Of a DNA stretch of 64,000 nt, positions 32,343 through 42,155 are shown one piece after another. The notes under the pieces were generated by a model. The model made no database searches. It had not been told where the DNA came from and saw only the letters and a program-made list of their open reading frames with translations. Where the stretch lies: sequence record MT682709.1. One strand, 5' to 3'. The first letter of the stretch is position 1; the number at the start of each line of letters is the position of its first letter. The translations under genes and the position numbers were made by a program. This DNA is from Escherichia phage vB_EcoM_SP1.

Positions 32343-32615
32343 ATGAAAACATTTAAAGAATTTATCAATGAAGCTACTTTTAACGAAAAAGTAAAAATTA
32401 GCAAAGCTGTCAAGACTTTGATTGCTGACATCAATTACCTATATGATATTGATTTAACTGACTATGTAACAGTTGGTAACAAACGTAACTTTTTCGTGTT
32501 TGACATCTCTGAACTTGACCAGAATCAAATTAACAACATTGAGCGTTTTGCTAATGATAAGGGTCTTCGTCATGAGTCAGCGGGTTATAAAAAATACGCA
32601 ATTTATTTAAAATGA
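32343..32615 (+). CDS. internal-protein-like ORF with capsid-targeting sequence (MKTFKEFINE/A)
   Basis: N-terminal CTS with a gp21-type (I/L)xE cleavage site; ATG 8 nt after GGAG; the track's TTG start discarded. Confidence 0.7.
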   Translation: MKTFKEFINEATFNEKVKISKAVKTLIADINYLYDIDLTDYVTVGNKRNFFVFDISELDQNQINNIERFANDKGLRHESAGYKKYAIYLK

Positions 32616-32645
32616 GTTTACTTTTAAATAGGGTTGTGGTACTAT
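32616..32645 (+). promoter_or_regulatory. early promoter (GTTTAC ... TACTAT)
   Basis: -35 GTTTAC 32616-32621, -10 TACTAT 32640-32645. Confidence 0.6.
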
Positions 32646-32675
32646 TATCTCATCAAAATTAATTAGGAAAATAAA

Positions 32676-32984
32676 ATGAAAACATTTAAAGAATTTATCA
32701 ATGAAGCGGCTGCACCAAAGACATTCGTTATTAATACTCAGACGAGTCTTGACGATGAGTATGCAGAGGCAATTCTGAAGTCACTTGCTAAGAACGGCGT
32801 TGAAGTAATCGCCTCGGACTTTAAGAAAGGGGCTTCCGAGATGTTTATTTCTATAACTAAAGGATCTAAAGCTAAAATCAAATCATCATTCGGTGTTGCT
32901 CGTACCGATCAAATCGACAATCATGACTTTAAACAAACTGGTGTTAAACGGCAGAACACAATTGCATCACGCGGAATAAAATAG
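32676..32984 (+). CDS. internal-protein-like ORF with capsid-targeting sequence (MKTFKEFINE/A)
   Basis: First 32 nt identical to the 32343 ORF, unrelated C-terminal part. Confidence 0.7.
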   Translation: MKTFKEFINEAAAPKTFVINTQTSLDDEYAEAILKSLAKNGVEVIASDFKKGASEMFISITKGSKAKIKSSFGVARTDQIDNHDFKQTGVKRQNTIASRGIK

Positions 32985-32994
32985 TTTATAAACC

Positions 32995-33024
32995 GTTTAC
33001 TTTTCGATGGGGTAGTGATATTAT
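32995..33024 (+). promoter_or_regulatory. early promoter (GTTTAC ... TATTAT)
   Basis: -35/-10 elements with 18-bp spacing. Confidence 0.55.
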
Positions 33025-33052
33025 TACCCTATCAACTACTGAGGAGAATAAA

Positions 33053-33235
33053 ATGAAACGTTGTGAATTAATTCGAAATGTTGCTATTGCAATTTCTGCT
33101 TCCGCTTTTAGTTTTTCAATGTTTGTTGGATTTATATGCGGATTATTAACTACAGCAGAAAATGTGTTTTCACTTGTAGTAGCATTTTTAATTGGTTTAA
33201 TTGCTATCGTTATGGATAAAATTTCTAAAGGTTAA
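33053..33235 (+). CDS. small hydrophobic membrane protein
   Basis: 60 aa, two predicted TM helices, GGAG RBS. Confidence 0.55.
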   Translation: MKRCELIRNVAIAISASAFSFSMFVGFICGLLTTAENVFSLVVAFLIGLIAIVMDKISKG

Positions 33236-33237
33236 TA

Positions 33238-33525
33238 ATGATTCTTTATGCGAAAGTATCGTCCGTTGAAAATGGATATAAATATGATCAAGATGCGGCT
33301 AAAGCCTTGATTGATGATTATGGCATTTTAACATGTTTTGAAGTTGAAAAGGTTTACATTGACCGTTCATCTTCTCAAGTTAAATTAGTAAAGGAAGACC
33401 GTAAATTTAATACAGTAAATTTTGATTTCTTTATCGAAACAGAAAAAGGTCCTCTTGAATATGATATTTTCAAGAATCCTTTGGGTCTTGAATGCATCGT
33501 AAACATGTATTATCATAAATGGTAA
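33238..33525 (+). CDS. hypothetical protein
   Basis: 95 aa ORF, coupled start (TAATG) with the upstream ORF. Confidence 0.55.
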   Translation: MILYAKVSSVENGYKYDQDAAKALIDDYGILTCFEVEKVYIDRSSSQVKLVKEDRKFNTVNFDFFIETEKGPLEYDIFKNPLGLECIVNMYYHKW

Positions 33526-33622
33526 ATATGCTTTAAGAATTATTTGTTATTATTAACTCATATCGCACTGATTAATACCCTCTATCATCAAGGGTTCTTG
33601 CTTGAGAGCCTTTGTTAATAAT

Positions 33623-33695
33623 TGGGAATTAGCCAAGTTGGTAAGGCACTGGATTTTGATTCCAGGATGCAAAGGTTCGAGTCCTTTATTCCCAG
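33623..33695 (+). tRNA. tRNA-Gln (anticodon TTG)
   Basis: Cloverleaf read by hand: acceptor TGGGAAT/ATTCCCA, anticodon loop TTTTGAT. Confidence 0.85.
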
Positions 33696-33696
33696 C

Positions 33697-33783
33697 GCGA
33701 GAATGGTCAAATTGGTAAAGGCACAGCACTTAAAATGCTGCGGAATGATTTCCTTGTGGGTTCGAGTCCCACTTCTCGCACCA
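33697..33783 (+). tRNA. tRNA-Leu (anticodon TAA), CCA encoded
   Basis: Acceptor GCGAGAA/TTCTCGC, anticodon loop CTTAAAA, long variable arm. Confidence 0.85.
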
Positions 33784-40152: not shown

Positions 40153-40430
40153 AAACATATAGTGAATTTTTATCAGAATCTATTCTTAACGAAGCTACTG
40201 ACACATTTGCAACTAAGCTAGGTGCAGCTTTGGTTGAAGCTGAAAGTCTATTAGCACGTATTTCTGAACTTGCTAGTAAGATAGATACTCGCAAATTTGA
40301 ACGTACCAGCGATATCGTTAAGCTTGAAGCCTTGTTGCGTATGTGCGATAAACCAGAAGAAATCGCTAAGAACGGCTCGCTAATGAAACAACGTCTTGAA
40401 AAATATATCTCAGGCGCTTCAGAAAAATAG
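40149..40430 (+). CDS. internal-protein-like ORF with capsid-targeting sequence ([11 protein letters not shown])
   Basis: ATG overlaps the lysozyme stop (ATGA); the track's TTG start discarded. Confidence 0.6.
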
Positions 40431-40431
40431 T

Positions 40432-40461
40432 GTTTACTTCCTCCAAGGACTTTGATACTAT
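40432..40461 (+). promoter_or_regulatory. early promoter (GTTTAC ... TACTAT)
   Basis: 18-bp spacing, upstream of denV. Confidence 0.6.
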
Positions 40462-40488
40462 ACATTCATCAACTACTTGGAGGAAATT

Positions 40489-40902
40489 ATGACTCGTATC
40501 AATTTAACACTTGTTTCTGAACTGACCGACCAACATCTTATGGCTGAGTATCGTGAATTACCACGCGTATTTGGTGCAGTCCGTAAACATGTTCAAAACG
40601 GTAAACGTGTAAAGGATTTTAAAATCTCTCCAACATTTATCTTAGGCACAGGTCACGTAACATTCTTTTACGACAAACTCGAATTTTTACGTTTACGTCA
40701 AATCGAGCTAATCGCTGAATGCTTGAAACGTGGTTTCAAAATCAAGGACACGACTGTCCAGGATATTTCCGACATCCCTGTCGAATTTCGTAATAATTAT
40801 GTCCCGTCCGAAGCGTCCATTGCGATAAGTCAAGCTCGCTTAGATGAAAAAATTGCTCAACGCCCTACTTGGTACAAATACTATGGTAAATCAATTTACT
40901 AA
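40489..40902 (+). CDS. denV: endonuclease V (pyrimidine dimer DNA glycosylase)
   Basis: 138 aa from [29 protein letters not shown], matches recalled T4 EndoV. Confidence 0.92.
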
Positions 40903-40908
40903 GGAAAA

Positions 40909-41169
40909 ATGAAAATGTATCAAGAATTTATCGCTGAAGCAGATGCCAAAGGCCCCAAATTTAAAGTTAAAGCTTTCGTTGGTGATGCAGAAGATTTTGG
41001 CTCATTAAAACGTAATGGGTATTCTTTCCTAGGCGGCGATGGTAGAGAAATAAACACCTATGCAAAACGTAGTGAAATTGCTTATGTTGTAGCAAGCCCT
41101 AAAGTAGATGTTGACGATATTGGATATGATTTTAACAACTTCGGAATTATTTCTGGCGGTAAAGCTTAA
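40909..41169 (+). CDS. internal-protein-like ORF with capsid-targeting sequence (MKMYQEFIAE/A)
   Basis: 86 aa; CTS plus (I/L)xE cleavage site. Confidence 0.65.
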   Translation: MKMYQEFIAEADAKGPKFKVKAFVGDAEDFGSLKRNGYSFLGGDGREINTYAKRSEIAYVVASPKVDVDDIGYDFNNFGIISGGKA

Positions 41170-41172
41170 ACA

Positions 41173-41202
41173 GTTTACGCTTAAGTATTAATATGATATA
41201 AT
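41173..41202 (+). promoter_or_regulatory. early promoter (GTTTAC ... TATAAT)
   Basis: 18-bp spacing. Confidence 0.6.
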
Positions 41203-41232
41203 TACTCTATCAAAACAAACAAGGAAACAAAA

Positions 41233-41811
41233 ATGAAAACGTATCAAGAATTTATTGCTGAAGCTTCTGTAGTAAAGGCAAAAGGCATTAATAAGGACGA
41301 GTGGAACTATCGTGGTGGAAACGGCTTTGACCCTAAAACTGCTCCACTTGAACGATATCTAGCCACAAAAGCTTCTGATTTTAAAGCCTTCGCTTGGGAA
41401 GGACTTCGCTGGCGTAACGATCTAAATATTGAAGTTGACGGACTTAAATTTGCTCATATTGAAGATGTTGTTGCTAGTAACTTAGATGCAGCTTTTGTTA
41501 AAGCCGACAGTGATCTTCGTCGCTGGAATTTAAAACTGTTCTCTAAACAAAAAGGCCCGAAGTTTGTGCCTAAAGCCGGTAAATGGGTCATTGATAATAA
41601 ATTAGCTAAGGCTGTCAACTACGCTGGTCTTGAATTCGCCAAGCACAAATCATCATGGAAAGGTCTTGATGCAATGGCTTTCCGTAAAGAATTTGCCGAT
41701 GTTATGGCTAAAGGCGGCTTTAAGGCAGAAATAGATACCTCTAAAGGTACGTTTAAGGACGCTAATGTTCAGTACGCTTATGCCGTTGCTAATGCAGCCC
41801 GTGGTAATTAA
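41233..41811 (+). CDS. ipIII: internal protein III-like (CTS MKTYQEFIAE/A)
   Basis: 192 aa; T4 IPIII size and CTS. Confidence 0.7.
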   Translation: MKTYQEFIAEASVVKAKGINKDEWNYRGGNGFDPKTAPLERYLATKASDFKAFAWEGLRWRNDLNIEVDGLKFAHIEDVVASNLDAAFVKADSDLRRWNLKLFSKQKGPKFVPKAGKWVIDNKLAKAVNYAGLEFAKHKSSWKGLDAMAFRKEFADVMAKGGFKAEIDTSKGTFKDANVQYAYAVANAARGN

Positions 41812-41852
41812 TAAGGCCTAAGTATAGGCCTATTTACATTTAAAGGAAACAT

Positions 41853-42155
41853 ATGAAAACATATCAAGAATTTATTACTGAAGCGCGAGTGAGTGCAGGT
41901 AAATTAGAAGCCGCTATAAATAAAAAGGCCCATTCATTTCACGATTTGTCCGATAAAGACCGTAAGAAACTTGTAAGCCTTTATATTGACAAAGAGCGTA
42001 TTCTCGCTCTTCCTGGCGCTAATGAAGGTAAACAGGCCAAGCCTTTGAATGCTGTCGAAAAGAAAATTGATAACTTTGCTTCTAAATTCGGTATGTCTAT
42101 GGATGACCTTCAGCAAGCGGCTATCGAAGCAGCTAAAGTAATTAAAGGTAAATAA
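41853..42155 (+). CDS. ipII: internal protein II-like (CTS MKTYQEFITE/A)
   Basis: 100 aa; T4 IPII size and CTS. Confidence 0.7.
   Translation: MKTYQEFITEARVSAGKLEAAINKKAHSFHDLSDKDRKKLVSLYIDKERILALPGANEGKQAKPLNAVEKKIDNFASKFGMSMDDLQQAAIEAAKVIKGK

Follow-up and report, generated by a model that had tools for sequence, protein, structure and literature searches.

Introduction

Among the internal head proteins of T-even phages are IPI, IPII and IPIII of T4, which carry an N-terminal capsid-targeting sequence (CTS). Head targeting needs no more than the first 10 residues of IPIII; residues 4 and 7 of the CTS set targeting, and residues 8 and 10 set processing (PMC9026906). A review of T4 head assembly considered the CTS as perhaps an evolutionary device for bringing diverse proteins into capsids (PMC9026906). 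Here, we analysed the CTS proteins encoded by a 64-kb stretch of Escherichia phage vB_EcoM_SP1 (record MT682709.1; 64,000 nt, 36% G+C, hereafter the window), a T4-like coliphage of the genus Tequatrovirus. Seven open reading frames (ORFs) of the window start with a CTS-type leader, and one of them, encoding 187 amino acids (aa), belongs to the protein family phrog_2280.

Several CTS proteins have known targets. Ip1, Ip2 and Ip3 are inhibitors of GmrSD type IV restriction enzymes, each with a different one as its target (PMC12373910). The ipIII gene is required on ECOR17, and IPIII is active in the cytoplasm without its CTS. Bas37_0260, a CTS protein encoded at the ipI locus, inhibits McrBC (HIDEN-SEQ preprint, 2025; bioRxiv 10.1101/2025.11.20.689424). 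As recounted in PMC12373910, the variable CTS-bearing ip genes of T-even phages go back to Repoila 1994, and that work proposed recombination at the conserved leader for the ipI locus. Because CTS proteins of T-even phages have been published as injected anti-restriction factors, an anti-defence role is the right default reading of a new member; an earlier note on this DNA, made from the sequence alone, had called the new members candidate injected anti-defence effectors, a description that the published roles of Ip1–3 and Bas37_0260 favour.

Results

Seven ORFs start with a CTS-type leader

We scanned the window in six frames for ORF starts with the pattern M-x3-4-x-[ED]-[FLY]-[ILVM]-x-E. CTS-type leaders were found at seven ORF starts, all on the plus strand (Table 1), in agreement with the earlier note in motif, starts, ends and lengths. 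Three further matches had unrelated leaders, two belonging to short minus-strand ORFs and one lying at the window edge. The strict motif, MK[TM][YF]xEF[IL]xE, had 7 occurrences in the window, and 200 shuffles of the window yielded none. All seven leaders (7/7) had Y/F at position 4, F at 7, I/L at 8 and E at 10. A looser scan added only vs.6 (43302, MKAYQILEG), which was rejected as a CTS protein, having neither F at position 7 nor (I/L)xE. Upstream TTG starts are listed for the 32343 and 40149 ORFs; the CTS-bearing ATG is preceded by a Shine-Dalgarno sequence or, in the 40149 ORF, shares bases with the e stop codon. At conserved leader positions the codons differed synonymously (ACA/ACT/ACG, ATC/ATT and GCT/GCG/GCA), which argues for selection on the peptide and not on the DNA.

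Table 1. Positions of the CTS-bearing ORFs, the processing protease and the transcription signals in the window. A slash marks the predicted cleavage position in a leader.
Feature	Position	Strand	Description
gp21, prohead core serine protease, CTS-removing enzyme	2726..3364	-	212 aa; Peptidase_S77, E = 1.5e-111
ipI-locus gene 1	32343..32615	+	90 aa, MKTFKEFINE/A; phrog_7673 'internal head protein', E = 1e-54
ipI-locus gene 2	32676..32984	+	102 aa, MKTFKEFINEA; Ip7 family, phrog_2667, E = 5e-41
Intrinsic terminator of the tRNA/rnaD-rnaC unit, upstream edge of the 187-aa cassette	35124..35147	+	
Late-promoter box AATAAATA, A(-13) variant of TATAAATA	35196..35203	+	46 nt before the 187-aa ATG
187-aa CTS protein	35242..35805	+	MKTYAEFLTE/A; phrog_2280, E = 2.8e-53; unannotated candidate internal protein
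Hairpin and T-run terminator directly past the 187-aa gene, downstream cassette edge	35810..35836	+	
Two TATAAATA late promoters before lysozyme gene e	39630..39650 (starts 39630, 39643)	+	
93-aa CTS protein, between e and denV	40149..40430	+	phrog_3499, E = 1.2e-46
86-aa CTS protein directly after denV	40909..41169	+	MKMYQEFIAEA; 93% identical to RB69ORF125c ('internal head protein', RefSeq)
IPIII	41233..41811	+	192 aa, MKTYQEFIAEA; 94% identical to T4 IPIII; PHROG E = 2.5e-117
IPII	41853..42155	+	100 aa, MKTYQEFITEA; 93% identical to T4 IPII; PHROG E = 4.5e-55

The enzyme that removes the CTS in T4-like phages, gp21, is encoded where the earlier note had placed it, and the ORFs next to it have the sizes expected for gp23, gp22, gp68 and gp20. 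The 93-aa protein may be cut at a conserved site at residue 15 (LNE/A) rather than at residue 10 (LSE/S). Cleavage would leave N-termini of ATFNEK in the 90-aa protein, AAAPK in the 102-aa protein, SILNE or ATDTFATK in the 93-aa protein and ADAKGPK in the 86-aa protein. The mature bodies contained 4 internal (L/I)xE sites, with 5.9 expected (P = 0.27), a difference that was not significant and made the depletion test uninformative.

BLASTP comparison of the mature bodies (first 12 residues removed) indicated no similarity among the seven, as had been claimed for the five that are not IPII or IPIII. The identification of the 192-aa and 100-aa proteins as IPIII and IPII was confirmed by their identity to the T4 proteins (Table 1). 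As for the others, the 90-aa protein is named internal head protein in IME340, UFV-AREG1 and F25 (exact-sequence look-up). The 102-aa protein has the UniRef name Ip7 and was 69% identical to RB69ORF156c (BLASTP), and the body of the 93-aa protein matched RB69ORF127c at 100% identity and Ip5 of RB14/Bas37 at 49% (BLASTP). The 9.9-kb region is up to 96–97% identical to many T4-like coliphages, and public databases already contain the exact sequences of all seven proteins. For six of the seven, a label as internal head or virion protein exists in at least one of PHROGs, RefSeq (relative G4498) and UniRef. The earlier note had presented five members as novel; this held for the 187-aa ORF, which had gone unrecognised, and not for the other four, which belong to internal head families in PHROGs, RefSeq or UniRef. 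The phenomenon it described, polymorphism among the CTS-bearing internal proteins that T-even phages carry, is a known one; the description was correct and the mechanism it gave is the accepted one, but its novelty was overstated.

We then compared the bodies with proteins of known function. Only those of the 41853 (IPII) and 41233 (IPIII) proteins were homologous to inhibitors with a demonstrated target, and the window likely encodes inhibitors of a GmrSD(ECOR21-type) and a GmrSD(ECOR17-type) enzyme, as judged by homology. The other five bodies gave no BLASTP match with E < 0.01 to Ip1, Ip2, Ip3, Ip4 or Bas37_0260; by BLASTP, the window contained neither an IPI orthologue nor a Bas37_0260 homologue. 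The earlier note had proposed profile and structure searches as a check; the PHROG matches are given in Table 1. Pfam and NCBIfam yielded nothing above threshold for all seven proteins, a PDB sequence search with six proteins and the family profile found nothing except a chance DARPin match (E = 0.02), and structure prediction was of no use.

The 187-aa ORF belongs to a widespread family with a conserved leader

The 187-aa protein aligned with the phrog_2280 profile over its full length (residues 1–181 to profile positions 1–178). This PHROG of unknown function includes RB14ncORF136c, RB69ORF149c/148c, a JS09 protein (similar to JS98 gp135), fD1 g140 and bas37_0243/0244; all members tested, including seven divergent homologues and bas37_0244, were assigned to it. 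The 187-aa gene was found in 164 phage records and was a 'hypothetical protein' in all matches listed, for example RB14ncORF136c. Word-indexed and tblastn searches with the 187-aa protein found only close relatives, with at least 85% identity, or at least 89% for direct searching with the protein. The wider family emerged only when 1.8 billion representative proteins were scanned in full with HMMER, which gave a bridging homologue of 204 aa (31% identity, E = 2e-6); this homologue had tblastn matches in 350 phage records, 'hypothetical' in all matches listed. A Foldseek search against viral models found only a truncated near-identical copy (OE5505) and an uncharacterised protein of Yersinia phage fHe-Yen9-01 (22%, E = 5e-4). 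The names RB69ORF148c/149c and RB14ncORF136c were absent from the literature searched.

A gene of this type closely follows the tRNA cluster and precedes e.8/e.6 in six loci from Karamvirus, Marfavirus, Mosigvirus, Kanagawavirus, Kagamiyamavirus and Jiaodavirus, that is, five Tevenvirinae genera and Marfavirus; with the window, at least 7 T4-like genera have it. The same synteny, after the tRNA cluster and upstream of e.8/e.6, was seen in the window, RB14, Bas37, fD1, RB69, KMB19, Marfa, JS09, Kosakonia 305, EcS1 and KP185.

A CTS-like start, x(F/Y)x(E/D)(F/I)(L/I)xE, was present in 20 of the 21 divergent homologues examined, the exception being P0132 (163 aa), whose start lies downstream of the leader. 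The leaders included MLNFKEFIAE/S, MYTFNEFLAE/T, MLKFKEFISE/A, MLKFKDILTE/S, MKFKDFLTE/E and MNFKEFLNE/A, and several homologues had a second (I/L)xE/A site a few residues further on. In a 15-sequence alignment, L8 and E10 were invariant and T9 nearly so, with bodies 16–22% identical to the window protein. The family has a common layout: the CTS, a conserved N-domain of ~60 aa, a Pro/Ala/Lys-rich linker that is predicted to be disordered, and a C-terminal domain of one of at least two unrelated types. The mature 187-aa protein is basic, with an isoelectric point (pI) of 9.5, and its N-terminus is expected to be AAKLPSEADLTK.

The 187-aa gene lies in a predicted late cassette

Terminators bound the 187-aa gene on both sides, and a late-promoter box stands between the first of them and the ATG (Table 1). 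Octamers of the AATAAATA type occurred only 2 times on the plus strand of the window; among natural variants of the T4 late promoter, A(-13) occurs most often, at 9 of the 50 listed sites (PMC2988020). The promoter scan found no sigma-70-like promoter before the gene, and G4498 has an annotated terminator at the place equivalent to 35810..35836. From this layout of terminator, late promoter, gene and terminator, the 187-aa gene is predicted to be a monocistronic late cassette. A late promoter was located between the hairpin and the ATG at every phrog_2280 locus examined: TATAAATA in KMB19, JS09, KP185, fD1 and bas37_0244, and the one-base variant xATAAATA in the window, RB14, RB69, G4498, Marfa, Kosakonia 305 and EcS1.

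Bas37 has two tandem paralogues, of 157 and 187 aa (bas37_0244 and bas37_0243). The rnaC terminator hairpin (TTAGCCCCGACCGAAAGGTTGGGGCTTTTT) occurs twice in Bas37 (L006 6780-7500), once in front of each paralogue, and its duplication suggests that recombination at the terminator is how phrog_2280 cassettes are gained and lost. T4 has a single terminator, which joins straight to the sequence that follows the cassette terminator in the window. T4 lacks the 187-aa gene and has only a 285-bp gap at its position, which is probably why the family has never been named.

Among the seven, the 187-aa ORF is therefore the one new element: at the sequence level, phrog_2280 has every hallmark of an internal protein, and its locus would be a third ip hotspot. 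The protein, and possibly others of the set, might also be packaged through its CTS and serve as a prohead-core or DNA-organising protein, like gp67, gp68 or IPIII in its proposed morphogenetic role. Its single syntenic locus in at least 7 genera, which is unlike the highly variable ip genes, fits such a role; the probably disordered Pro/Ala/Lys-rich linker and the mature pI are compatible with DNA binding, and IPIII mutants have head-assembly defects (PMC9026906). However, the gene is absent from T4 and many Tequatroviruses and frameshifted in RB69, so phrog_2280 is not needed for head assembly, and both the exchange of its C-terminal domain between at least two unrelated types and the tandem paralogues of Bas37 are typical of arms-race genes. 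We consider a core role unlikely, and an injected effector remains the preferred reading of the family.

Most of the other CTS genes have predicted distant late promoters or early-type promoters

The two late promoters before e may, by inference from the gene order, also drive the 40149 and 40909 genes; the latter starts 6 nt past denV. Early-type sigma-70 promoters were found before the 32343 gene (TTTACA-N17-TACTAT at 32278-32306) and before ipIII at 41233 (41174-41202), and the 32676 gene has a similar element, GTTTAC-N17-TACTAT, that fell under the threshold of the promoter scan. A perfect TATAAATA on the plus strand at 41915-41922 lies inside the ipII coding sequence and may be the late promoter of a vs.8-like gene at 42380, or a chance match.

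Larger sets and cassette exchange are common among relatives

The same CTS scan was applied to the homologous region of seven other phages, with chance matches such as vs.6 excluded. T4 and fD1 had 3 CTS ORFs each, RB14 and Bas37 had 4 each, phage 132 had 6, RB69 had 7–8 and G4498 had 8, compared with 7 in the window. The set is indeed larger than that of T4, as had been noted, but it is not unusual: relatives with 3–8 CTS ORFs rule out seven as an exceptional count. G4498 (L001 1264-1488) also has a third ipI-locus gene, absent from the window, which encodes a 74-aa protein with a degenerate leader (METYQKFIVE/A) and is annotated as an internal virion protein.

Comparison with the T4 map placed the seven genes at three locations, the ipI locus, downstream of the tRNAs and flanking denV, as had been proposed. 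The 187-aa and 93-aa genes are clean insertions relative to T4. The block nudE-e-IP-denV-IP at 39176-41262 (IP, internal protein) is RB69-like (86%, with the RB69 gene order), with T4-like sequence on both sides; the ipIII-ipII segment is T4-like (91–94%). The gene order is e-IP-denV-IP-ipIII-ipII in the window and e-ipIII-ipII-denV in T4. The denV gene of the window is only 79% identical to that of T4, and RB69 belongs to a different genus.

The first 32 nt of the 32343 and 32676 genes are identical, and their upstream sequences are similar. Different ip genes, in the window and in T4, match one another in modules of 45–90 nt that comprise the leader and upstream sequence, and the same body stands behind different leaders in G4498 and phage 132. 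These patterns fit recombination at the conserved leader. In RB69ORF127c (L007 4923-5204), the leader is MKTYMNFYQNLSLNE (MKTYMNFYQN), in which the canonical CTS is destroyed, though the body is 100% identical to that of the window; either two 1-nt indels that compensate each other or errors in the old sequence appear to be responsible.

Shared leader DNA also bears on the alternative that the common N-terminus is a by-product of a 5' DNA module (promoter, ribosome-binding site and first codons) which recombination would spread among accessory genes for the good expression it confers, so that some of the proteins, notably the 187-aa one, would be cytoplasmic and unpackaged; the 32-nt identity, the cross-matching modules and the drifted RB69ORF127c leader in front of a fully conserved body count in its favour. 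It is contradicted by conservation at the amino acid level in diverged homologues, since phrog_2280 bodies that are only ~16–30% identical have kept the aromatic residue at 4, F/I at 7, L/I at 8 and E at 10, the positions of experimental importance, and by the synonymous codons in the leaders and the distinct context of the 187-aa gene, which lies outside the early-promoter module and has its own late promoter; we therefore regard it as very improbable.

The tRNA region and neighbouring genes

The region between the ipI locus and the 187-aa cassette differs from that of T4 in several features. At 33015-33525, trna.4 (60 aa) is followed directly by trna.2 (95 aa) and trna.3 is missing; T4, RB14 and Bas37 have a trna.3 of ~400 nt between the two. 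Ten contiguous tRNA genes follow at 33623-34450 (Gln, Leu, Gly, Pro, Ser, Thr, Met(CAT), Tyr, Asn and Arg), of which Met(CAT) is probably of the Ile type as in T4/RB14. T4 has eight tRNAs; Tyr and Asn are extra in the window, and the segB homing endonuclease of the T4 cluster is absent. Directly after tRNA-Arg, where T4 has rnaD/rnaC, lies an ORF of 116 aa (34467-34817), homologous to RB69ORF150c and bas37_0245 and with no Pfam match. The next ~340 nt (34817-35154) are 90% identical to T4 rnaD/rnaC (species 2 and 1 stable RNAs) and end in a strong terminator.

Discussion

We propose that the seven internal proteins would be synthesised during prohead assembly and dock onto the scaffolding core via the CTS. 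Then gp21 would cleave them after (I/L)xE at residue 10, or possibly at residue 15 in the 93-aa protein, and the mature proteins of 8–20 kDa would remain with the DNA in the head and be injected together with it. In the new host they would act as a first anti-defence response, ahead of phage gene expression. By homology, IPII and IPIII would inhibit particular GmrSD-type type IV restriction enzymes, and the other five would be expected to inhibit other variants or other early defences. The ip genes would be exchangeable cassettes, for which the shared leader, the promoter and 5' untranslated region modules and the terminator sequences provide recombination homology; such exchange would account for the three hotspots and for a gene order unlike that of T4. 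The account as a whole, in which seven CTS internal proteins are packaged, cut by gp21 and injected as exchangeable anti-defence cassettes, the 187-aa one as a late cassette, is in our judgement likely to be right.

A narrower proposal concerns phrog_2280. It may be an overlooked family of head-packaged, injected proteins with a fixed architecture, interchangeable C-domains and its own late promoter, located in a terminator-bounded cassette by the tRNA genes and unnoticed because T4 lacks it; on the present sequence evidence we put this at slightly better than an even chance. One member, fD1 g140, met the full identification threshold in a liquid chromatography-tandem mass spectrometry (LC-MS/MS) analysis of purified fD1 virions (PMC8309999 Table S3), and fD1 g129 (Ip4) was likewise particle-associated by LC-MS/MS (PMC8309999 Table S3). 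The g140 protein is of the 157-aa bas37_0244 type and matched phrog_2280 with E = 2.3e-60. A leaderless hidden Markov model (first 20 residues removed) scored g140 weakly (15 bits) and no other internal protein among 25 targets, so its link to the 187-aa protein rests mainly on the PHROG profile, which includes the leader. From its leader, MKSYTQFLNE, the processed N-terminus of g140 is expected to be AVLNEASSTEIQ or ASSTEIQAVAK (after LNE/A). The fPS-65/90 paper contained no proteomics. Our searches turned up no earlier work that links the CTS, the late promoter and the virion detection of fD1 g140.

Several observations weigh against these proposals. The fD1 particle list comprises 113 proteins, among them the non-structural DenV, lysozyme e and NudE (PMC8309999), which makes the detection of g140 weak evidence. 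In RB69 the 187-aa gene carries a frameshift and is split into RB69ORF149c/148c (L007 13429-13991), indicating that the gene is dispensable at least in RB69. Early-type sigma-70 promoters precede the 32343, 32676 and 41233 genes, none of which has its own late box, so that their late expression would depend on read-through. In their mature forms, the 93-aa and 86-aa proteins have a near-neutral pI (6.3–6.4), whereas IPII and IPIII are basic. Domain, PDB and Foldseek searches found no sequence or structure similarity of the five non-T4 bodies to any known anti-defence protein, and both packaging and function of these five are inferred from their sequences. AlphaFold2 models of the 187-aa protein were all-helical, with disorder at residues ~75–98, and too poor for fold inference (predicted local distance difference test score 63 for the protein alone and 59 with the 15-sequence alignment).

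Internal proteins are the first phage molecules to face host immunity, and they contribute to the host range of the T4-like phages that serve in therapy. The Ip7, Ip5-like, RB69ORF125c-type, phrog_7673 and phrog_2280 proteins form a short list of candidate anti-defence factors for panels of GmrSD/McrBC and other defences. If phrog_2280 were recognised as a CTS protein, the 'hypothetical' label of this gene in ~350 phage records would be corrected, and a third ip hotspot would join the two known ones. If the proposal holds and the swapped C-domains set target specificity, phrog_2280 would be a modular family of injected effectors that is older and more widespread than IPI–III.

In comparison with known systems, the window shares with T4 IPI–III the functional residues of the CTS, the protease, the IPII and IPIII orthologues (93% and 94%) and the ipI and e/denV loci; it differs in having no IPI orthologue, in five bodies that are unrelated to IPI–III, and in a third occupied locus downstream of the tRNAs. 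Bas37_0260 has the same type of N-terminal signal and follows the same hotspot logic, and Bas37 also has the 187-aa gene (bas37_0243) and its paralogue bas37_0244; the difference is that Bas37_0260 has no sequence similarity to any of the seven window bodies. The 187-aa ORF is a full-length member of phrog_2280, a family never annotated as an internal protein. The window also resembles the polymorphic ip genes of T-even phages (Ip4–Ip10 and beyond), among which the 102-aa Ip7, the 93-aa RB69ORF127c/Ip5-like, the 86-aa RB69ORF125c and the 90-aa phrog_7673 proteins of the window find their place; for these four there is no substantive difference, and cassette-like exchange at conserved leaders is common to the group.

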